From an uncultured Eubacteriales bacterium (GTDB lineage: Bacteria > Bacillota_I > Bacilli_A > RFN20 > CAG-288): DNA of 64,000 bases. Location: assembly GCA_900316035.1 (NCBI GenBank), contig ONBI01000002.1, positions 14,028-78,027 on the forward strand, read 5' to 3'. Made by a program: the position numbers and the translations under genes. How positions within the stretch are numbered: the stretch's first letter is position 1; each line of letters begins with the position of its first letter. A model generated the notes under the pieces. The model was given only the letters and a program-made list of their open reading frames with translations. It was not told the DNA's origin and did not search any database. Below, one piece after another: positions 1,318 to 17,926 of the stretch.

Positions 1318-3648
1318 ATGATAGAAAAAATCGATGACAATACGGTTATTGTCTCTACGAAAAACACTTCTCTTCTTATCGTCAATAACAAAGTAAATAA
1401 GGTATCTCTGGAATATTTCGGACCCCGTATCCAGGATAGGGAAGAAGGAAATGCTTTATTCCATCCGGTTAATTTTGCGCAAGGAAGCTGTGCTATTTAC
1501 GAGGAAAGCTATCCGAATTATTCTTTATCCCAAGCAAAGCTTCTTCTTTCTACTGCGGGGAAGAGCGATCTTTTCTCCCCTTCGGTAGATATGGAAAACA
1601 GTCTTACTTCTCTTTTTGATTTCACGTTTGCTTCTTTCCAAATCAAGAGTGAAGTCCTTCCTCTTTCTTCTCTTCCTTTCCCTCATGGAGCAAAAGAAGA
1701 ACTGGTTATCCGCCTTATGGAAAAACAGAACCAAGTAGAAGCCGAACTCCATATCCTTCCTTTTGAAGAAGAGGATGTCTACGGAGAATACTTAGTCCTC
1801 TCGAATTCCAGCGAAAGAGAAATCAAAATCAAGAAAGCAGCTTCTTTATTGATTCCCTTAGAAGATAACGAGGATTCTCTTCTTTCTCTCTCTGGCAACT
1901 GGGCAGGAGAACTCAATGTCGAAAGAACAAAGCTTCCTTCTTCCCGTATCGTGATGGAATCTTTCAGCGGAACCTCAAGCTGTCAACACAATCCTTTCTT
2001 TGCTTTGGTAGAGAAACATACGAATTTCCAGCAAGGAAATTGCTATGGCTTCAATCTGATGTATTCCGGCAACTTTGAAAACTCCGTGGAAAAGAATTCC
2101 TTCGGCCTGATCCGTGTTCAGAGCGGTATCTCTTCTTTCGGTTTCAAAAAGACACTTGAAAAAGGAGAGAAGTTCATCACACCGGTTGCTCTCTTCTCTT
2201 ATTCCGGAGAAGGAATCAATACCTTAAGCGATAACTTCCATCGTTTCATCACTTCTCATGTGTTACCCGAAGAGTTTGCATCTGCTCCGCATCCGGTTTC
2301 CTATAACAACTGGGAAGCAACCGGAATGAAGTTCAATAAGAACAAGATTGTTGCTTTGATGAAAGAAGCATCGGATCTTGGAGTGGAGCTCTTTGTCTTG
2401 GACGATGGTTGGTTTTCTACCCGTGACGATGATGCTCACGGCTTAGGAGACTGGAGTGTCAACACAAAGAAGCTTCCTGGTGGCTTAGATGCGTTAGCCA
2501 AAGAAGCCGCAAAACGGAATCTCAAATTCGGTATCTGGATGGAACCGGAGATGGTTTCGCCGGATACTCCTCTTTACCGGAATCATCCCGATTGGATCAT
2601 CCATGATTCGCTTCATAAACCTTCCTTAGGAAGACATCAGTTTGTTCTCGATTTAAGAAAGCAGGAAGTACAGCACTTTGTCTACGATGCCGTAGACAAG
2701 GTTCTTTCTTCGGCGGATATCGCTTATCTCAAATGGGATTTCAACCGCGATATGACCGATATGGATAATAGGGACGGCACATTCTTCTATGACTACTATG
2801 TCGGACTTTATAAAGTCTTAGGAGCTTTGAAGAAGAAGTATCCGAAAGTCTTATTCGAAAACTGTGCTTCCGGCGGTAACCGTTTCGATTTAGGTATGAT
2901 GACTTATTTCTCTCAGTCCTGGATGAGCGATGATACGGATTCGTATCAGCGCACCTTGATTCAGGAAGGAGGAACGTTAGGTTATCCTCTTTCGATTCAG
3001 TCGAATCATGTTTCCTGCCGTGTATCGAATCAGATGTTACGGAACACTTCCTATGACACCAAGTTCGATACTGCCTGTTTCGGTGTTCTCGGATATGAAC
3101 TGGATCTGAAGGATCTTTCTTCACTAGATAAAGAAATCCTCAAGTCTCAGATTGCTTTCTATAAAGAACATCGGATGACTTTCCAACAGGGAAGAGTCTA
3201 TACGGATCAGTTCTATTGCGAGAATGAAACCAAGTGGTTAGAAGTCAAAGGAGAAAAAGAAGCCTTGGTTGCTTACTATCAGAAAGTACAGAAACCGAAT
3301 CCTTCTTCTTTACGTCTCTGGTGTGTAGGATTAAAAGAAAATCAACTTTATACCTATAAAACAAGACAGGAGTCCTTACCTCTTCAGCGTTTCGGTAACT
3401 TGGTCAATTATGCAACTCCGTTCCATATCAATCCGGACGGAACCATGCTTACGATTCTTTCTCATCATCGGGATATGAAGAGTGAAGTGGATCAAGGCGT
3501 TGTTCATGGGGAAGCTTTAGCTAAGAAGGGACCTCTTTTTTCCGATGAATGGATGGGATTAGGGTATAACGAACACACAAGACTTGTCGGTGATTTCGGT
3601 GCAAGACTCTATCTGATTCAGGAAAAAGAAGAAAAGAAAGAAGAATAA
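1318..3648 (+). CDS. alpha-galactosidase, glycoside hydrolase family 36
   Basis: 776 aa. Motifs LFVLDDGWF, KWDFNRD and CASGGNRFD are characteristic of GH36. AGGAGG SD upstream. Confidence 0.85.
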   Translation: MIEKIDDNTVIVSTKNTSLLIVNNKVNKVSLEYFGPRIQDREEGNALFHPVNFAQGSCAIYEESYPNYSLSQAKLLLSTAGKSDLFSPSVDMENSLTSLFDFTFASFQIKSEVLPLSSLPFPHGAKEELVIRLMEKQNQVEAELHILPFEEEDVYGEYLVLSNSSEREIKIKKAASLLIPLEDNEDSLLSLSGNWAGELNVERTKLPSSRIVMESFSGTSSCQHNPFFALVEKHTNFQQGNCYGFNLMYSGNFENSVEKNSFGLIRVQSGISSFGFKKTLEKGEKFITPVALFSYSGEGINTLSDNFHRFITSHVLPEEFASAPHPVSYNNWEATGMKFNKNKIVALMKEASDLGVELFVLDDGWFSTRDDDAHGLGDWSVNTKKLPGGLDALAKEAAKRNLKFGIWMEPEMVSPDTPLYRNHPDWIIHDSLHKPSLGRHQFVLDLRKQEVQHFVYDAVDKVLSSADIAYLKWDFNRDMTDMDNRDGTFFYDYYVGLYKVLGALKKKYPKVLFENCASGGNRFDLGMMTYFSQSWMSDDTDSYQRTLIQEGGTLGYPLSIQSNHVSCRVSNQMLRNTSYDTKFDTACFGVLGYELDLKDLSSLDKEILKSQIAFYKEHRMTFQQGRVYTDQFYCENETKWLEVKGEKEALVAYYQKVQKPNPSSLRLWCVGLKENQLYTYKTRQESLPLQRFGNLVNYATPFHINPDGTMLTILSHHRDMKSEVDQGVVHGEALAKKGPLFSDEWMGLGYNEHTRLVGDFGARLYLIQEKEEKKEE

Positions 3649-9586: not shown

Positions 9587-9661
9587 GGTGACCTAAATAA
9601 TAAAGAGATTGGTCTTGTAAACTATTTACTATACAATGTATATCAAAGGAGGTACTACTCT

Positions 9662-9934
9662 ATGGCTAAAGTACCGACACAGATCCGTATCGACGCGGGG
9701 GTGAAGAAACAAGCGAGTGAACTTTTTGAAGAACTCGGTCTTGGTATGTCTACCGCCATCAACATCTTCTTAAAGCAATGTATTTTAAGAGGCGGTCTTC
9801 CTTTCTCCGTGGAGGCTCCTAAGTACTCAAAAGAACTTCTTGATGCTGCAAAGGAAGCAAAACGCATCTCCCATGATCCTAGTGTTCCTCGTTACACAAA
9901 CAGGGAGGATCTAAAGAATTCTCTCGAAAAATAG
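9662..9934 (+). CDS. type II antitoxin, RelB/DinJ family
   Basis: 90 aa. IRIDAGVKKQASELFEELGLGMSTAINIFLKQCILRGGLPF is a DinJ-type ribbon-helix-helix. AAGGAGG SD upstream. Confidence 0.8.
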   Translation: MAKVPTQIRIDAGVKKQASELFEELGLGMSTAINIFLKQCILRGGLPFSVEAPKYSKELLDAAKEAKRISHDPSVPRYTNREDLKNSLEK

Positions 9935-10291
9935 ATGCTGGCAGTTAAGTATACATCTGCCTTTAAGAAGAGTTATTAGTTGATGAAAAAGCGGGGGGAC
10001 TTGATTTATCTCTTCTTGATGATGTTATCTCTTCCTTGCTGAGCTTTACCATGCCCTTTCCTTTCCGTCGGATGGTCAAGCTAGCTTGACCATCCATCCC
10101 TTACCTAGTTACCTGGAAGTACAAGAATTGGGTACAGTACATTATCAAAAATTTAAAAGTTTTCGTGAATGTTGTATTCAATCGGCCTGATTACTTGTTT
10201 ACTTTATTGAAAACGATATTCTGACTCTAACGCTTGTTGATACGGCACCTATGCAGACCTATTGAATATGGGAAAAGAAAAGGTCCTCTAG
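9935..10291 (+). pseudogene. decayed YafQ/RelE-family toxin gene
   Basis: ATG abuts the antitoxin stop. Reads MLAVKYTSAFKKSY-TAG(9977)-LMKKRG, then a frameshift in G6 (9993-9998), then LDLSLLDDVISSLL. Later FRECCIQSA-TGA(10188)-LLVYFIENDILTLTLVDT, another frameshift, then GTYADLL. Fragments are colinear with the YafQ consensus. Confidence 0.6.
10070..10095. repeat. 26-bp perfect palindrome GGATGGTCAAGCTAGCTTGACCATCC inside the toxin pseudogene
   Basis: Verified as its own reverse complement by hand. The centre is GCTAGC. Confidence 0.9.
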
Positions 10292-10365
10292 TTGGATTTT
10301 CTGGGCGATGCAGAGAGTGCTAGCACTCTCTGCTACCTACCCTAGTTGTCCAACTAACAGGGTCC
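10270..10365 (-). terminator. large compound terminator of the esterase operon, containing a 24-bp perfect palindrome (10310-10333)
   Basis: Outer stem is GGTCCTCTAGTTGGA (10282-10296) against TCCAACTAACAGGGTCC (10349-10365), enclosing GCAGAGAGTGCTAGCACTCTCTGC. On the minus strand it is followed by TTTTCTTTTCC. Starts 35 nt after the stop at 10400. Confidence 0.55.
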
Positions 10366-10399
10366 AATCATTTTCGAAAAGCCACTCTTTCGGAATCGT

Positions 10400-11584
10400 C
10401 TATTTGCTTTTGTATACACGAATCAAGAAATTATAGAGAGCAAGATGCCAATTTCCCTGAGAGTGATAACGCATCGGGAAAACATCAAAATTGGTGTTTA
10501 CTCCCGCTTTCAATCTCGGCTCTATTTTTAGGATGTTGTGATAATCCTCGACTTGGGAACTCAGGGCAAAATCGAAATTGCCACTGGAGACATACCAATA
10601 ATCGATGGGAAGATCTTTGAAGGCTTCCGATTGAATATTATCTTGAAAATAGGTAGCCCCTGTACGGCTTCCGCTGAAAGAGCCAAACCGTGAAAAATAG
10701 TCTAGAGATCCACAGAAAGCAGAACGAAGCGTAGTTACGGCACCGCGCGAGAGACCGGCGAACGAACGATGTTGACGGCTTGATTTAAAGCCTTTATCGT
10801 CCGCAGTTTCGGCATAAGTTGAGTAATGAGATTCAACATAGGGAAGAAGGTCGTTACGCAGTTCTTCTTTGAAAGAATAAGTAAGTAGATCAAGTCTTTC
10901 GATGCTTTCTTTACAATCATCTTCGACATAGAAGGTCGGAGTTACGACAAGCATCGGAGAAATGATTTTCCTTTCCGTCAGGTTATCTAGCAGAGCTTTG
11001 TTTTTTGGGTTCGTTATCAACCAATATGCTTCATCATCTCCTGTTCCATGAAGAAGATAGAGAATGTCGTAATTTTTGGTGGAATCATATCCATAAGGAA
11101 CATAAACATAAGCTCGTTTTGTCAGGCTTCTTTTGTCGGTCGCATAGGCTTTTGTAGGGTAATTGATCTCCTCTATTTTTCCTGGCTGAGAGCTTTCTTT
11201 TTCATAAATATCTGGCACTTGCCAGATTTCTCTTTTTGCTTCCGTATCGTTGTTAGCGACAACGGAAGAAATTCCCCACTGAGAGCCAAAGGCCATCAGT
11301 AGAACGAATAGAGGAACAAAGGTGGAAAGCACCTTTTTAGTAGGCTTCTTCTTTTCTAAAATGGCAAAAACACTGCCCAGAACGCCACCGATGGCAGCAA
11401 TGATAGCTTCGATCAGAAAAAGAACATTGAAGAGCGTTGTGGCAGGGTTATTGGTAATCAGAAAAAGAATGATGCCAAATGGAACGATAAGGAGATTCAG
11501 TACCGGAAGTTCACCTAAAAAGGCAGACCAAGAGAGTAGAGAAAAGAAAACTCCGATGAGTAGGACAGTCAGAGTTGAAATCAA
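10400..11584 (-). CDS. membrane-anchored alpha/beta-hydrolase esterase (esterase D / CE1-like). The start as sequenced is doubtful; the probable true start is ATG 11699, out of frame because of the A14 tract.
   Basis: YVYVPYGYDSTKNYDILYLLHGTGDDEAYW and the nucleophile elbow GLSRG. N-terminal TM helices. The frame stays open upstream to the TGA at the A14 tract. Confidence 0.65.
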   Translation of the reverse strand: MISTLTVLLIGVFFSLLSWSAFLGELPVLNLLIVPFGIILFLITNNPATTLFNVLFLIEAIIAAIGGVLGSVFAILEKKKPTKKVLSTFVPLFVLLMAFGSQWGISSVVANNDTEAKREIWQVPDIYEKESSQPGKIEEINYPTKAYATDKRSLTKRAYVYVPYGYDSTKNYDILYLLHGTGDDEAYWLITNPKNKALLDNLTERKIISPMLVVTPTFYVEDDCKESIERLDLLTYSFKEELRNDLLPYVESHYSTYAETADDKGFKSSRQHRSFAGLSRGAVTTLRSAFCGSLDYFSRFGSFSGSRTGATYFQDNIQSEAFKDLPIDYWYVSSGNFDFALSSQVEDYHNILKIEPRLKAGVNTNFDVFPMRYHSQGNWHLALYNFLIRVYKSK

Positions 11585-11676
11585 TTCTCCTAAAGCAATA
11601 TAACGCCCAATATCGATAAGGCAGAGAAGGGAAACAAGAAGAGCACAAAGAAAATCGATGAGAGTAGTCTTAGTTA

Positions 11677-11690
11677 TTTTTTTTTTTTTT
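11677..11690. repeat. homopolymer: T14 on the + strand, A14 on the coding strand
   Basis: Counted directly: tagttaTTTTTTTTTTTTTTcac. Confidence 0.95.
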
Positions 11691-11718
11691 CACATTCATA
11701 CCTCTGGGAAAGAAAGAG

Positions 11719-11746
11719 AGGCAGGCCGGAATTGCCCGGCTTGCCT
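11719..11746 (-). terminator. hairpin / weak terminator between the membrane-protein gene and the esterase gene
   Basis: 11-bp stem AGGCAGGCCGG / CCGGCTTGCCT with one G-U pair. Followed on the minus strand by CTCTTTCTTTCCC, a weak U-tract. Confidence 0.35.
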
Positions 11747-11756
11747 ATTCTATGTT

Positions 11757-12137
11757 TTATTGTTTGATGACTTCTTTTTTCTGTGGAAGAACAACGGCAA
11801 CTGCAGAGCAAAGAAGAGCAAGGATGCTGAGGACAAAGGCAACGACAAACGGAGCACTCAGACCTAAGACGTTGTTCTTTGCCATGATATCGGCTAAGTT
11901 GTTAAGCAACACCAATAAGAGGAAACCGACCGCAATCGCATTGAAAGTAAAGGGGAAAAATTCGGTAAGACGGAAGGGTTTGACACTGACGACAGCTCCG
12001 GCAACGGTTGCAAGAATAAGCATTACTAGGATCACTGGATAACGGTTTTCTCTGCAGATGCCGTATAAGATGGCAGATAAGAGACTGGCAAGAGTGGCAA
12101 ATTCTGTGAAGTAAAATCCCAAACCTCTATTTTTCAT
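11757..12137 (-). CDS. small polytopic membrane protein, unknown function
   Basis: The listed ORF starts at 12227 inside the GH3 gene. ATG 12137 (MKNRGLGFYF...) follows an AGGAG and lies after the GH3 stop. About four hydrophobic helices. Confidence 0.55.
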   Translation of the reverse strand: MKNRGLGFYFTEFATLASLLSAILYGICRENRYPVILVMLILATVAGAVVSVKPFRLTEFFPFTFNAIAVGFLLLVLLNNLADIMAKNNVLGLSAPFVVAFVLSILALLCSAVAVVLPQKKEVIKQ

Positions 12138-12144
12138 TTTCTCA

Positions 12145-14997
12145 TTACTCCTTTTCTTTGAAGGCTCCAATTGCAACGAAGGCGACAGCAACGATAGTGG
12201 CAACTGCAAGAACAGAATCAACGACAATCGCTGTTGTTAACCACCAAGGCATTACCGGAACAATCTTATCTCCCGAAGAGATTCCGTTGAACGCTAAAGA
12301 GTTGACAACGTTGTAGAGAAGATAATGAGCGGAAGAACGCATATTGGCGACCATCTTACTGTCTTTCTTTGCGTCGGCAATGACAGCTTCGTAGATCTTT
12401 GTTCCCGATGTAGCCCACATTGTCGTGCCTGCTTCGAGTCCAGATTTGAAGCCCATCGCTTCGTTGTAGCTGAAGACGGCATCCGTATCTAAGATACCTT
12501 TCCAATCCCATTCATTGCGGACTAAATCGGTCTGCAAGGCTTTGTCCGCACCAGTCCAGGTGCAGCCGATACGATTGAAGCCACCCATAATCGCTTTGGA
12601 TTTGCCTTCGACTAAGCCGGCTTTGAAAGCTTCGAGATAGATTTCACGGAAGGCCTGTTGACTGGTGAAAGTGCAGATACCCTGACGATTTGTTTCCTGA
12701 TCGTTGAGAACAAAATGCTTAAGGAAAGCGACAGCTCCTTTTTCCTGCATTCCCTCAATTTCTGGGACACTCATTTCGCCGTTAAGATAACCATCTTCCG
12801 AATAATATTCGAAGTTGCGCCCTGAATACGGAGTGCGGTGGATGTTGACGGAAGGGGCATAATGACCGACCGTTTCTGTACGTAAGTTATCTTCTCCGAA
12901 AGCTTCACCAATCTCTTTTAAGATATCGCGGTCATAGGTAGCACCCATGATGACTTCGCTGGGGAATACGTGAGCATATTCTTTATTTTCAACGTAAGGT
13001 CTATCCGCGACACGATGGGAACCATCTTTCATGAAAGTGGCCGGATAAGCGATGCTTTCAATAGCGGCTAACCCAGAACGGCCGACCAAATTGAGGAGGT
13101 CTTCAATCGAAAGCTGATTGATAATGACTTGCCACTGCGGATCATCGAACTTCGCGTCACGCATCATAGCAACCGTATATTTAGAATCCGCTCCTAAAGT
13201 CATTCCACTCATATCCTCTGAACCAGGAGTGTACTTACCCTCGATGTTCATCGCATCGATCATTTTGCTATTAGCGTTTAATTTGGTCACTTCTGTAGGC
13301 CAGGTGCTTTCCCAATTGTTACGCGAAAGATAGATAACAGAGTTGTCTTGCCAATAGTTGAGATCTACATCATCGAAGAGATTCGTGATTCGGACATTCT
13401 GGTCCGTGACGGAATACGTGCTGGTATCGGTATTTGCTAACGTGAACTTATGGACAAGATCCTTCTGGCCGTCTACACTCTTGTCTTTTGCCGACAGAAT
13501 GTTGTTAATAGCGGCATGTGCATTTTCACCGACGGTAAGATAATAGGTGCCGCCTTCCATAATATAGGTCTTGTTTACATACGAATCGTAATGAGCTAAG
13601 TCCTCTTTATCGATGGTGATTGAAACCGTCTCAGTAGCACCTGGAGCGATTTCCTTTGTCTTAGCAAAGCCGGCTAATTGAACAGAGGGGACTTCGATTT
13701 TGTTCTGTTTATCGAAATCGGTGTAAGGAGTCTGTGCATAGACTTCGACCGCTTCTTTACCTGCAACCGAACCGGTGTTCTTAACTTCGACCTGCACTTC
13801 ATAAGTGTTGTTGTTCTCTTTGACACTTTTCAGAGTCTTGGAGAAAGTGGTATAGGAAAGACCATAGCCGAAAGGATAGCAGACCTCTTTGTTGTAATCC
13901 CAGCCGGTCGCAGAGGCATAAGCTCCCGTGGAAGAAGACGCTTTTCCTTGGCCAAGAACCGTGTCTTCATAGCGGGTCTCATAGTATTTATAACCGACAT
14001 AGATGCCTTCCTTTTCAACAACATACTTTGTCGCATTTGCACCTTTACCGATCTGATTTTCAATATCGGTGCCATTCGCATAAGTATAGTCTCCGAAGTT
14101 GCGCATTGCCGGCGAAGAGAATGAGTCGGCAGCATAGGTATCTACCGTCTTTCCGCACGGATTGCTCTTTCCGACCAAAATATCGGAGACGGCATTCAGT
14201 CCGTTGTAACCCACAGCGCCGATCATCAGACAAGCATCGATATCGTAATCCTCTAACCAGCCTAATTCCATCGGATAAGAAGTGTTGAGAAGAACGATCA
14301 CTTTATCGAAATGAGAAGTGACTTCACTCAGCATCTTCTTTTCGGATTCTTGGAGGGCGAGATACTTTGTTCCACCGGTGAAATCACCCGTAGCTAAGTC
14401 ACCACCTTCTCCACCGGAACGGCTGATCACAACAATTGCTGCATCTTTATAGGAAGCATAGGAAGAACGGATCGAATCACCGATTTCATCGACATCGACT
14501 TCCGGGACTGCGTTAAATGCGAGTTTCGCGGTTGATTTTTCTTTGTAAAAATCGTAAACAGTCGGATTCAATTCAAGTTTTCCGTCTTCTTCCATAGCCG
14601 TTTTGAAATCGACATAAGAAGCTGGAGCACCGAAACGAACCATACCGGTCGAAACAGTGTTGATGGTTCCGTAACCAAAAGAACTTATTTTTGCTCCTTT
14701 AGCTAACGGAAGAGCATTGTTTTTGTTTTTCAATAAGACCGAACCTTCTGCCTGTACGCGACGTATCAGATTGTCTTCGGTCTTGACCCAATCGGCTAAT
14801 GACTGTCCGTTCGTCTTGTAGTCCTTTGTAGTTGCTTCTCCGTTCTGTTTGACGATTTTCGAAGTCTGTCCGCCAATGACAGAACATACTAAGGACTGAT
14901 ACGAGTTTGCCCAGGCTGTAAAGCCGATGAGTGGAGCGGTTAAAGTACCACAAACCGCTGAGACAATTCGCCAGTGTGTCGTCTTTCTTTTAGCCAT
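12145..14997 (-). CDS. glycoside hydrolase family 3 (beta-glucosidase/xylosidase-like) with reversed domain order, an N-terminal signal/anchor and a C-terminal TM helix
   Basis: AAIVVISRSGGEGGDL and PFGYGLSYTTF (alpha/beta-sandwich domain) come first. FLKHFVLNDQETNR and WKGILDTDA (TIM-barrel domain) come last. Start set at MAKRK (14997), after GGGGGAAAG. Confidence 0.8.
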   Translation of the reverse strand: MAKRKTTHWRIVSAVCGTLTAPLIGFTAWANSYQSLVCSVIGGQTSKIVKQNGEATTKDYKTNGQSLADWVKTEDNLIRRVQAEGSVLLKNKNNALPLAKGAKISSFGYGTINTVSTGMVRFGAPASYVDFKTAMEEDGKLELNPTVYDFYKEKSTAKLAFNAVPEVDVDEIGDSIRSSYASYKDAAIVVISRSGGEGGDLATGDFTGGTKYLALQESEKKMLSEVTSHFDKVIVLLNTSYPMELGWLEDYDIDACLMIGAVGYNGLNAVSDILVGKSNPCGKTVDTYAADSFSSPAMRNFGDYTYANGTDIENQIGKGANATKYVVEKEGIYVGYKYYETRYEDTVLGQGKASSSTGAYASATGWDYNKEVCYPFGYGLSYTTFSKTLKSVKENNNTYEVQVEVKNTGSVAGKEAVEVYAQTPYTDFDKQNKIEVPSVQLAGFAKTKEIAPGATETVSITIDKEDLAHYDSYVNKTYIMEGGTYYLTVGENAHAAINNILSAKDKSVDGQKDLVHKFTLANTDTSTYSVTDQNVRITNLFDDVDLNYWQDNSVIYLSRNNWESTWPTEVTKLNANSKMIDAMNIEGKYTPGSEDMSGMTLGADSKYTVAMMRDAKFDDPQWQVIINQLSIEDLLNLVGRSGLAAIESIAYPATFMKDGSHRVADRPYVENKEYAHVFPSEVIMGATYDRDILKEIGEAFGEDNLRTETVGHYAPSVNIHRTPYSGRNFEYYSEDGYLNGEMSVPEIEGMQEKGAVAFLKHFVLNDQETNRQGICTFTSQQAFREIYLEAFKAGLVEGKSKAIMGGFNRIGCTWTGADKALQTDLVRNEWDWKGILDTDAVFSYNEAMGFKSGLEAGTTMWATSGTKIYEAVIADAKKDSKMVANMRSSAHYLLYNVVNSLAFNGISSGDKIVPVMPWWLTTAIVVDSVLAVATIVAVAFVAIGAFKEKE

Positions 14998-15265
14998 ATT
15001 CTTTCCCCCAATTTTGTTTTTTGCGATGTCTGGCATCGCTTACGCCATCACTCTAGTTTTTTTCCTTTTTTACGTGTATACCTTTGTCGAAAAGTGATGC
15101 AGATCTGTCGAGAACTGCTGTAAGCGGTTTTAACTGTAAAATGTTGGAATAAATTACTTTAAACGGAATGATTTATTTTCTTCTATATTTGTGTAGCTTT
15201 CTCCGTTTATCAAGGTATGGCATTCTCTTTTTGAGAACACTATAATTTTGTGGAAGGGGTTTTCT

Positions 15266-15970
15266 ATGATTCGCGTTGCTTTAGTAGAAGACGATTCCGA
15301 ATATAAACAGCAATTTCTATCTTATCTAACCAAGTATGGCCTCGAAAAAGGAATTGAGGTTCAGACCGAGTACTTTTCGGATGGTCTTTCGTTTATCCAA
15401 AATTATCATAAAGGCTACGATATTGTTCTGATGGATATTGAAATGCCCCGCCTCAACGGGATTGATGCATCGAAACAATTGCGAAAAATCGATTCGGAAG
15501 TCTGTCTGATTTTCATTACGACTTTTGCTAAATATGCGATTGCCGGATATGAAGTGAACGCTCTTGACTTTTTGGTAAAGCCTGTTTCATATGAGCTTTT
15601 TGATCTGAAAATGGATAAAGCACGCAATTATCTTCAGAAGACACAAAGCGAAATCTATATTCTGAAGATGCCGGGAGAAACCTATAAGATTCAGCAAATG
15701 GATATCTTATATGTTGAAAGTCAGGATCATTACCTTATTTTTCATGTTCATGGGAAAAAAGAGGAATACCGTATTCGTGGAAAGCTGAGGGATATTTCCT
15801 TGCAGGAAGATCGTTTCTGCCTGATCGGCCGTTCCCTGCTTGTCAATCTCGCTTATGTCGAAGAAATCAATGATCTTTCTTTGACGGTTGCTGGGGAGGT
15901 ACTTCCTCTGGCCCGTGCCTATAAAACGATTTTGATGAAGAAATTGACGACATTCTGGGGAGAAGCGTGA
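15266..15970 (+). CDS. LytTR-family response regulator
   Basis: Receiver domain (VALVEDD...DIVLMDIEMPRLNGID) plus LytTR domain (ILYVESQDHYLIFHVHGKKEEYRIRGKL). ATG 15266 has a GGAAGGGG SD. Confidence 0.85.
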   Translation: MIRVALVEDDSEYKQQFLSYLTKYGLEKGIEVQTEYFSDGLSFIQNYHKGYDIVLMDIEMPRLNGIDASKQLRKIDSEVCLIFITTFAKYAIAGYEVNALDFLVKPVSYELFDLKMDKARNYLQKTQSEIYILKMPGETYKIQQMDILYVESQDHYLIFHVHGKKEEYRIRGKLRDISLQEDRFCLIGRSLLVNLAYVEEINDLSLTVAGEVLPLARAYKTILMKKLTTFWGEA

Positions 15971-15974
15971 CGAT

Positions 15975-17279
15975 ATGACTATTCAGGAAGTCTTCTCGCT
16001 CAGCGTTTATCATGGATATATCTTTCAGATATTGGTTTCGGAAGCTCTTTTTCTGAAACAGTTTCAGAGAAGAAATTACTTTTGGTTACGAATATTACTT
16101 GGCCTTCCAATTTTTGTTTTCCTCGCTATAGTTTTGCCGAACATCGTCGCACATTTTGTTTCTGGCTTTTTCTCTCTGATTATTTTCTTGCTTTCCCTTG
16201 CTCTCTGTGTTTTTCTTTTTAAGAACCGGTTCACTCATATTCTTTTCTATTGTATCAGCGCTCAGTTTGTTCAGAACCTCTCCTACCATATCGAAAACAT
16301 GATCTACCTACCTTTGCAGGACCATTTTAGTCAGCTTGGGTGGTTTTTCTTTTCGTTAGGAAATATGGCTGTGGTTTATACTATCTGTTTCTTTGTCTAT
16401 ATCTATCGGATGAAGCCTTTGGAAAAAATCAAAATCAATACCGGCTATGTTGTCACAATGGCGGTAGTTACTGCTGCTTTTATCTATGTGATTCAATATC
16501 TGTTTATGTATTACAATCTTTCTCAGATTTGGTTGACGCATCTTCCGATGGCACTATGTTGCATCTTTGCTCTTTATATTCAGAATGGCTTTGTCAATTA
16601 TAGGAATGCACAGGAAGAAAACAGAGAGCTGGAATATTTTCTCCATCAAGAAAGAAAACAGTATGAAATGACGAAGGAAAACATCGCCGTATTAAATATG
16701 AAAGCCCATGATCTGAAACATCATATTAATCGGTTCCAAAATTTAACTGGGTATGATAAAGAAGAAATTCAGGATATCTCCAAAGTAGTCGAAGAATATG
16801 AGACGATGGTAGACTGCGGAAACAAAGAGATGAATATTATCCTGACAAAGATTCAATACGAATGCCAAAGAGAAAAAATAGCTTTTACATCTATGGTGGA
16901 AGGAAGCAAAATGGGTTTCTTGCGTACTCCGGATATGATTTCTATTTATTCAAATGTTCTAGATAACGCATTTGAAGCGGAAAAAAGAATCGTTGAAAAA
17001 GGAAAACGTTTCATCTCGATTAATGTCCATAGCCACGGCAGTTTCCTCATCACCCATGTTGAGAATTACTGTAATCTACCTCTTCATTTCGAAGAAGGAC
17101 TTCCGGTGACTACCAAAGAGGATAAAGACTTTCACGGACTCGGTTTAAAAAGCGTCCGTTATGTTGTTTCAAAATATCAGGGAAACATCAATATCTTTCA
17201 GAAAGATAATCTCTTTGTGGTGGATATTCTTTTGCCGATGAACCGCCAGCAACAGAATCTGAAAGAAAAACAGCAGTAA
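15975..17279 (+). CDS. AgrC/HPK10-like sensor histidine kinase (GHKL ATPase) with a polytopic N-terminal sensor
   Basis: About six TM helices. H-box AHDLKHHIN, N-box SNVLDNAFEA, G-box DFHGLGLKSV. Confidence 0.8.
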   Translation: MTIQEVFSLSVYHGYIFQILVSEALFLKQFQRRNYFWLRILLGLPIFVFLAIVLPNIVAHFVSGFFSLIIFLLSLALCVFLFKNRFTHILFYCISAQFVQNLSYHIENMIYLPLQDHFSQLGWFFFSLGNMAVVYTICFFVYIYRMKPLEKIKINTGYVVTMAVVTAAFIYVIQYLFMYYNLSQIWLTHLPMALCCIFALYIQNGFVNYRNAQEENRELEYFLHQERKQYEMTKENIAVLNMKAHDLKHHINRFQNLTGYDKEEIQDISKVVEEYETMVDCGNKEMNIILTKIQYECQREKIAFTSMVEGSKMGFLRTPDMISIYSNVLDNAFEAEKRIVEKGKRFISINVHSHGSFLITHVENYCNLPLHFEEGLPVTTKEDKDFHGLGLKSVRYVVSKYQGNINIFQKDNLFVVDILLPMNRQQQNLKEKQQ

Positions 17280-17293
17280 TATTCTTTGTTCGC

Positions 17294-17926
17294 CTACTTC
17301 CCATCCATGAAGTTAGTGACCTCTCTTTTCTCCTCCAAGGTTGGATAGGTGATCCCTTTCTCTTTCCCAGCCTCTAAGCACTCTAAAACATAAGCCATAT
17401 TTAGGGCAAGATGTCTCATCGTCTGCATTCCTTCTTTATCTTTCTTCGCGTCCTCATAGGTAAAGCCATGCGCCATATTCCAGTACTGAGAACCGATCAC
17501 AAACATATTGTTCATGAGGAAATACTGGTTGAGTCTTTCAAAGCTAGCGCTGTTACCGCCTCTTCGGCATACCGTCAGAGAGGCTCCTACTTTTCCGAAG
17601 AGAAACTCTTTCGGGCAAGCGTAGAAGAAACAGTCTAAGAAGGACTGGATTCTTCCGGTCGGACCGGAATAATAGACGGGAGAGGCAATCACAAGACCAT
17701 CAAAGTCTTTCATCTTCTCGATGGTGGTATTCACCAGATCCGAGTAGATGCATTTATGGGTCTTAGAACAGGTTCCACAGCCGATACAATTCGCGATCGG
17801 AGCTTTCCCAAGCCAGACGATCTCACTATCGATATTCTTGGTTTTTAAAGTCGTAGCGACTTCTTCAATCGCCGCATACGTCGTGTTCTTCTCATCGGGA
17901 GAACCATTGATAAATAAAACCTTCAT
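17294..17926 (-). CDS. iron-sulfur flavoprotein / NADPH-dependent FMN reductase family
   Basis: MKVLFINGSP flavodoxin-like start. Compact Cys motif CIGCGTCSKTHKC (Cx2Cx2Cx5C), as in Isf-type proteins. Confidence 0.65.
   Translation of the reverse strand: MKVLFINGSPDEKNTTYAAIEEVATTLKTKNIDSEIVWLGKAPIANCIGCGTCSKTHKCIYSDLVNTTIEKMKDFDGLVIASPVYYSGPTGRIQSFLDCFFYACPKEFLFGKVGASLTVCRRGGNSASFERLNQYFLMNNMFVIGSQYWNMAHGFTYEDAKKDKEGMQTMRHLALNMAYVLECLEAGKEKGITYPTLEEKREVTNFMDGK

Follow-up and report, generated by a model that had tools for sequence, protein, structure and literature searches.

Translational phase variation at intragenic homopolymer contingency loci is mediated by poly-G and poly-C tracts in Neisseria, Haemophilus, Campylobacter and Helicobacter. 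A poly-A tract is found in the 5' coding region of the vaa adhesin gene of Mycoplasma hominis. Phase variation of the Vaa protein occurs at high frequency, and a methylase gene with a G11 frameshift is probably phase-variable as well (PMC2751442). The locus described here lies in a 64,000 nucleotide (nt) stretch of DNA from an uncultured Eubacteriales bacterium (contig ONBI01000002.1 of assembly GCA_900316035.1, positions 14,028 to 78,027), referred to below as the window, and is a gene for a predicted membrane-anchored esterase that carries a run of 14 A's (A14) at its 5' end. As sequenced, the start codon is cut off from the conserved N-terminal segment of the protein by a one-base frame offset in this tract. 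The tract is read here as a slipped-strand translational phase switch, ON at A13 and OFF at A14, with the window caught in the OFF state; the probability of this reading is put at about 0.55.

Poly-A runs are also known to affect transcription and translation. Runs of at least nine A's or T's are slippage sites for bacterial RNA polymerase, and transcriptional slippage at poly-A rescues frameshifted genes, among them mxiE of Shigella and genes of the Buchnera and Blochmannia endosymbionts (reviewed in PMC5009743). The tssM gene of Citrobacter rodentium is rescued by transcriptional slippage at an A11 run (PMC4256274). Ribosomes slide on iterated AAA codons (PMC4363877), and poly-A tracks are translation attenuators, with in-frame tracks lowering protein output (PMC4363877, PMC4552401).

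The poly-A tract and the start of the esterase gene

On the minus strand the start region reads, in order, a Shine-Dalgarno-like AGAGG (11705-11701), a T (11700), ATG (11699-11697), AAT, GTG (11693-11691) and the A14 tract (11690-11677; T14 on the plus strand), followed by TAACTAAG. The sequence-only reading had placed the tract behind ATG AAT GTG, in a frame that ends almost at once, and both features are seen. This frame is closed by a TAA (11672-11670, minus strand) after MNVKKKKNN, or after MKKKKNN from the GTG. The esterase reading frame (10400-11689, minus strand; 429 codons and a stop) is open through the tract, as had been stated, and is bounded by a TGA formed at the tract edge (11692-11690, minus strand). 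Read stop to stop it has 429 residues, with an N-terminal part, KKKKITKTTLIDFLCALLVSLLCLIDIGRYIALGE, that runs on into the L encoded by a TTG (11584-11582, minus strand). This TTG was chosen by the open reading frame (ORF) callers in the A14 state, which gives a called ORF of 394 amino acids (aa) at 10400-11584 on the minus strand. Its AGGAG is 2 nt upstream (TTAGGAGAATTG), a spacing already described as poor; the established optimum for Shine-Dalgarno spacing is 5–10 nt. The distance from ATG to TTG is 115 nt (3n+1), so that A13 or A16 would fuse the start and esterase frames, as had been worked out from the letters. The tract is a homopolymer of at least eight bases in the 5' coding region, and a change of one base toggles the frame (A13 in, A14 out).

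The likely start of the esterase gene, judged from its context, is the GTG rather than the ATG, because GAGG (11704-11701) lies 7 nt upstream of the GTG and 1 nt upstream of the ATG, and because it is where the gene caller started the gene on all three in-frame contigs. The ATG, which the sequence-only reading put forward as the probable start, does provide an in-frame start codon for A13, but the GTG abutting the tract is the better placed of the two. The ATG and GTG share one frame, and the frameshift logic is therefore the same for either start. Counted from the GTG, the tract makes up codons 2-5.

A homolog search over 5.8 billion proteins listed 120 relatives, including the window's own 394 aa call. 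The 119 other homologs among these matches are 412–458 aa long, and their matches span as much as 99% of the frame read stop to stop. Alignments were made of 17 and of 45 sequences, the larger containing 44 homologs and the window protein. Upstream of the TTG, the segment shows a gap-free alignment with a hydrophobic helix and a motif, IDIGRYIALGE corresponding to D-I-x-R-Y-x-x-L-G, and this first transmembrane helix (TM1) and the motif are present in all 44 aligned homologs. R30, L34 and G35 are each at least 90% conserved. The codons for TM1 (the model helix, residues 8–34 of a 430 aa allele introduced below) and for the conserved D-I-x-R-Y occupy 11671-11591 on the minus strand and are lost with the TTG start. 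No homolog among those listed and aligned starts at the TTG-equivalent position; the homolog lengths and the conserved TM1 and motif upstream rule out TTG 11584 as the start used by the family. The extra helix that had been proposed upstream of the TTG is borne out by the homologs and by the structural model. The opposite case that had been envisaged, orthologs starting at the TTG-equivalent position without the hydrophobic segment, is contradicted by the TM1 of every aligned homolog. By its conservation, the segment upstream of the TTG is genuine coding sequence. A shortened protein with four transmembrane helices, started at the TTG, could in principle still insert with its esterase outside.

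Five membrane helices are seen by hydropathy. The AlphaFold model of the full-length allele has a mean predicted local distance difference test score (pLDDT) of 88 and a predicted TM-score (pTM) of 0.87, and in it helix 8–34 (pLDDT ~97) is part of a five-helix bundle. The KKKK tip and an EKKKPTKK loop fit the positive-inside rule, and the esterase domain is therefore predicted to be outside the cell. The five-helix domain (residues 1–147 of the 430 aa allele, about 145 aa), which carries the D-I-x-R-Y-x-x-L-G motif, matched no Pfam or NCBIfam family. The domain recurs, conserved, in hundreds of esterases from Clostridia and Bacilli of the gut and rumen. Tandem copies of the five-helix esterase, as diverged paralogs with ~47–48% identity to the window protein, are found in another family of the same order (L003/L018, G042:C4:120026-122643; L004/L017, G058:C56:6356-8967).

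The body of the protein matches PF00756 (putative esterase) above the Pfam cut-off, with E = 9e-10, and in NCBIfam the best match is to a xylanase/feruloyl esterase model, in its esterase half. The catalytic domain matches PDB 1GKK in sequence (E = 3e-26) and in fold resembles the feruloyl esterase modules of XynY and XynZ from Clostridium thermocellum, with a TM-score to the target of 0.77–0.79 (Foldseek). The G-x-S-x-G nucleophile motif, G313-L-S315-R-G317, is invariant in the 45 sequences, with the serine codon at 10750-10748. D374, H410 and H416 are likewise invariant, and the Asp and His that complete the triad with S315 are presumably among these conserved candidates. The predicted product is therefore described as a membrane-anchored CE1 feruloyl-esterase-like enzyme, with an extracytoplasmic alpha/beta hydrolase following the membrane domain. 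Beyond the tract the ORF is intact, with no other lesion in the 429 codons and all family-invariant residues kept.

Tract length between assemblies and against the genome

The exact 394 aa out-of-frame product is found on 13 contigs, which come from ENA re-assemblies, Logan and a metagenome-assembled genome (MAG) at NCBI. Five of these were inspected and four have A14, which is also the consensus in the 84-kb contig of the window. Most of the out-of-frame contigs are in collection blocks whose longest contig is 50–200 kb. At 90% identity the protein clusters with one other member, P0122, which is 430 aa long and has the N-terminus MKKKKITK. This allele is encoded on three ENA contigs (L027-L029), all of them A13, with the gene called from the GTG. 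The A13 contigs differ from the window by a one-base indel only, with no single-nucleotide polymorphisms (SNPs) in 2.8–4.3 kb, and in one case there are no mismatches and a single gap, at the tract, over 21,293 bp. A 65-kb A13 contig is seen in two samples, and the A13 allele is present in three assemblies made by different assemblers. The databases therefore contain two versions of the same clone, one in frame and one out of frame. The slipped-strand reading would lead one to expect such an A13 allele in the same strain. The difference in length is one of assembly consensus, in assemblies that may share samples.

The sample names of the contigs point to studies of the rumen of Scottish cattle, in which single-sample IDBA-UD assemblies and MEGAHIT co-assemblies (k up to 87) were made from TruSeq/HiSeq 4000 data (PMC5830445, PMC6785717). 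The name of the 65-kb A13 contig starts with k87_, and this contig probably comes from a co-assembly of the cohort in which the single-sample assemblies have A14. This name and the absence of SNPs over 21 kb fit a MEGAHIT co-assembly; the assemblies are therefore not fully independent. Pure A14 stutter should not win a deep co-assembly, nor should A13 stutter give A14 on 13 contigs, which suggests that both tract lengths are in the read pool of the cohort. In the JGI metagenomes, neither a flanking-anchor pattern allowing any tract length nor a downstream anchor had a match.

Two of the inspected A14 contigs begin at the tract and the fifth inspected contig, L026, begins ~30 nt before it, which a branch of the assembly graph at this point would produce. 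L026 (ERZ28614630 scaffold_94706, 1.3 kb) reads ATG AAA GT followed by A15, and differs by three substitutions, each giving an A on the gene strand, at the equivalents of window positions 11691, 11694 and 11701. Because these changes are all to A and cluster within 11 nt of the tract at the end of the contig, L026 is ruled out as an independent strain variant; its differences are probably Illumina phasing errors after the homopolymer.

The tract was compared with the whole source assembly, a MAG of 1.86 Mb in 93 contigs that is 75% complete. There are 1280, 275, 32 and 2 runs of A or T of lengths 6, 7, 8 and 9, none of 10–13, and one of 14, while the longest runs of G or C are no longer than 9. 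The A14 tract is the sole homopolymer of at least 10 bases in the assembly, and its length is far beyond chance. In the long open frames of the genome AAA has a 48% share of lysine codons, yet apart from the tract none of 308 KKK runs is all-AAA against ~34 expected. Among runs of at least four lysines, 1 of 37 is all-AAA, and this is the esterase tract. Even within the esterase gene, EKKKPTKK is encoded as GAA AAG AAG AAG CCT ACT AAA AAG. Given the 0 of 308 and the lack of any other A/T run of at least 10, the genome purges slippery A-runs, to which the esterase tract is the lone exception. Loss of mismatch repair is ruled out as a cause of tract instability, with MutS and MutL genes present in the source genome and likewise in every one of the 17 genus genomes with a completeness of at least 90%.

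The closest homolog outside the strain itself, among the matches listed, has 57% identity, and no homopolymer is present at the 5' end of the gene in the homologs examined from relatives. The comparison of tract length in related species that had been proposed thus meets no orthologous tract, these homologs being at most 57% identical. A contig search with the 430 aa allele found distant homologs only (Gemmiger, a Christensenellaceae MAG and a Clostridia MAG).

Elsewhere in the genus, A-tracts of at least 12 are present in 32 of 45 genomes, but many are at contig ends and most of the real ones are intergenic. With one adapter artefact in addition, this tally is only partly usable as support for a habit of the genus. 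The artefact, L059 (G028:C97:5462-5475), is a contig end in a species-representative MAG in which Illumina adapter sequence (AGATCGGAAGAGCGTCGTGTAGGG...) is followed by A14, and the census is therefore inflated. Intergenic tracts of A12–A20 are found in relatives at L034 (G004:C6:11871-11887), L036 (G027:C11:43835-43854), L038 (G006:C58:4805-4819) and L053 (G063:C38). In the first three the tract directly follows a shared motif, TTGAAAAT or TTCAAAAT. L034 and L053 lie between divergent lipoprotein-like genes with Ser/Thr/Pro-rich mature parts and L038 is upstream of a sigma-factor-like gene; by analogy, these four look like the promoter-spacer tracts of the Mycoplasma vlp type.

Two tracts in unrelated genes are judged from their sequence to have the same design of start codon and poly-A as the esterase. 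In L066 (G003:C41:9330-9344), from another species, GGGGAGG is followed after 7 nt by ATG and then A15, with the contig ending 8 nt further on. In L058 (G028:C42) the contig starts within an A17 tract that opens a 404-codon frame (KKKKKIENPEEEK...). MAG G003 has unusually many long A-tracts, whether biological or technical, including A16–A17 tracts within coding regions at L065 (G003:C30:24775-24791) and L067 (G003:C137:360-375). The coding tracts of this MAG are in a sigma-factor-like ORF, in frame, and in a Dxr-like ORF with just 80 nt of open frame before the tract. An A16 tract is also present at L037 (G024:C50), where part of the downstream sequence (about 2100-3012 of the locus) is a run of N.

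Genomic setting and explanations of the frame offset

The esterase gene is the last of an operon on the minus strand that begins with a GH3 glycosidase gene (12145-15036, from the ORF list and Pfam) and continues with a gene for a 126 aa membrane protein (11757-12137, from the ORF list). Between the latter and the esterase start is a GC-rich hairpin with a T/C-rich tail (11719-11746, minus strand), which may be a weak terminator or attenuator. No sigma-70 promoter of the esterase's own was detected in 11500-12400. A LytTR two-component pair lies divergent to the operon, and a RelB antitoxin gene follows the esterase. In a sister species (PlsX 85% identical) plsX abuts the flavin mononucleotide (FMN)-reductase gene and the 9591-17294 block is missing. 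The esterase is therefore assigned to a 7.7 kb accessory island (9591-17294, without strand; sensor kinase, LytTR regulator, GH3, membrane protein, esterase and RelB antitoxin), because the whole block is absent from a species with 93–98% identical flanking DNA. The GC content of the island is 41.9%, against 44.4% for the window. Its place in an accessory island explains why the nearest homolog of the esterase is at 57% and why homologs come from Clostridia.

If the tract is a phase switch, the poly-A at codons 2-5 would behave as a hypermutable simple-sequence repeat. In the A13 state the GTG, served by the GAGG, would start M-KKKK-ITK... and so the 430 aa protein, whose lysine-rich tip would be cytoplasmic and whose esterase domain would lie outside the cell, beyond five membrane helices. 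Slipped-strand mispairing in replication would add one A, after which ribosomes would stop after 7–9 codons and the esterase body would have no usable start. The OFF state would probably be leaky, because bacterial RNA polymerase slips on runs of at least nine A's and poly-A lets ribosomes slide, and the ON state would probably be attenuated by the same two processes. Both lengths would then coexist as living subpopulations that interconvert, and switching would be useful to the cell. The sequence-only reading had offered a phase switch or a miscalled tract length; the in-frame A13 allele in three other assemblies speaks for the former, and a simple miscall is unlikely in view of the 13 out-of-frame contigs from several assemblers.

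Several points weigh against a phase switch. No benefit of turning the esterase off is evident, and the gene, as part of an accessory island gained recently, could plausibly also be in plain decay. With MutS and MutL present, instability would not be boosted as it is in Mycoplasma or Campylobacter. The lack of an orthologous tract in other species means that there is no evolutionary evidence of tract maintenance. The two lengths come from assembly consensus, so that assembler or homopolymer noise could still lie behind them; Illumina noise at the tract is real, as L026 shows, the A13 and A14 assemblies probably share the Scottish cattle cohort and are not fully independent, and the two other A13 contigs are short (2.8 kb).

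Of the other explanations, dose control is unlikely, though it uses the same two alleles. A14 would be the resting state, giving a low and constant amount of esterase through slips of RNA polymerase and sliding of ribosomes, and DNA slippage between A13 and A14 would move the population from a low to a high dose or back. A membrane-embedded esterase may be costly when over-produced. If true, slippage at the levels of DNA, RNA and ribosome would together act as a rheostat on a carbohydrate-active enzyme, in a gut commensal proficient in mismatch repair.

In another reading, which is equally doubtful, A14 is true and fixed, the A13 contigs are artefacts, and full-length esterase is made at a low set dose by slippage on the T14 template (13 or 16 A's), by +1 ribosome sliding, or by both. 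The slippery run of at least nine A/T at the frame junction is present, such runs are established slippage sites (PMC5009743), A11 is sufficient to rescue tssM (PMC4256274) and ribosomes slide on AAA runs (PMC4363877). The intact remainder of the ORF agrees with this, as does the excess of out-of-frame contigs (13 against three with A13), most of them from the blocks with longest contigs of 50–200 kb. A fixed and conserved out-of-frame arrangement is not what is seen, however, with A13 in the same strain and no orthologs that have the tract. The A13 allele comes from three assemblies by different assemblers, including the 65-kb contig from two samples. Programmed recoding cases usually keep the shifted state across relatives, and here no out-of-frame state is seen to be kept across species, the homologs being without the tract.

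Recent non-adaptive loss is a further, rather improbable explanation. The frameshift would have arisen at a mutational hot spot in an A-rich lysine leader, the island gene would be on its way out, and the TTG-started 394 aa product would be absent or non-functional. This fits the absence of the island from the sister species, the second PF00756 paralog of the genome (on contig C57), the predominance of the OFF form among the contigs and the lack of an evident rationale for switching. It fits less well with 429 codons that have no other lesion and keep all invariant residues, with the in-frame allele that persists in the same clone, and with a tract that has survived in a genome removing every other A-run of at least 10. 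A one-base slip at A14 is also readily reversible, and a permanent loss and a reversible OFF state look alike so far.

The weakest explanation, and a very improbable one, is a sequencing or assembly miscall of a tract that is really A13 everywhere in an intact gene: although the data are Illumina TruSeq/HiSeq 4000, the L026 errors mark the region as error-prone, contigs break at the tract and the MAG is 75% complete, A14 is seen in the 84-kb window contig and in four of the five inspected among 13 out-of-frame contigs from ENA re-assemblies, Logan and NCBI, and polymerase stutter usually shortens homopolymer runs rather than lengthening them, so that a true A13 would rarely yield an A14 majority.

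If the tract is a phase switch, a single clone maintains two subpopulations, of which one has a surface feruloyl esterase and the other has none, which would bear on how plant cell-wall degradation is divided in the rumen. Homopolymer phase switches are textbook features of pathogen surface antigens and restriction systems, and few have been documented in the enzymes by which rumen or gut commensals degrade fibre. The locus also bears on MAG annotation, as 13 contigs have been called with a shortened TTG-start protein that no homolog supports. The avoidance of A-runs, with 0 of 308 KKK runs all-AAA, provides an internal yardstick for spotting such exceptions in other MAGs.

Comparison with described systems

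The CE1 modules of C. thermocellum XynY and XynZ (PDB 1GKK, 1JJF) are like the catalytic domain of the window esterase in sequence, in fold and in the G-x-S-x-G nucleophile. Unlike them, the window esterase is not part of a cellulosomal xylanase and is instead fused to a five-helix membrane domain. Poly-A attenuator tracks share with the window gene at least four consecutive AAA lysine codons, but the main effect in the window gene is the frame offset, not a lowered output from an in-frame track.

The genes rescued by transcriptional slippage (tssM, mxiE and those of the endosymbionts) are similar in having at least nine A's exactly where the frame must change and an intact ORF downstream, and the A14 of the window is long enough for slippage to be expected. 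They differ in two respects. The window tract is at codons 2-5, so that the unshifted product is a peptide of 7–9 residues and not a functional short isoform, and an in-frame DNA allele coexists at the window locus.

Compared with the contingency loci, the host of the window is an uncultured, mismatch-repair-proficient rumen commensal and not a pathogen, and the cargo is a carbohydrate esterase rather than an adhesin, a lipopolysaccharide or capsule enzyme or a restriction-modification system. The tract is the only one in its genome, not one of a set. A variable tract conserved in orthologs is not found, there being no close ortholog (the next best is at 57%) and the island being species-specific. 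In other respects the locus resembles them. A long mononucleotide run lies just past the start codon, in the 5' position where a one-base change toggles the frame, and it is an outlier against the genome background. The product is a predicted surface-exposed membrane protein encoded in an accessory island. Tract length differs, in assembly consensus, between near-identical genomes, with putative ON and OFF alleles in otherwise identical DNA, as at the contingency loci.

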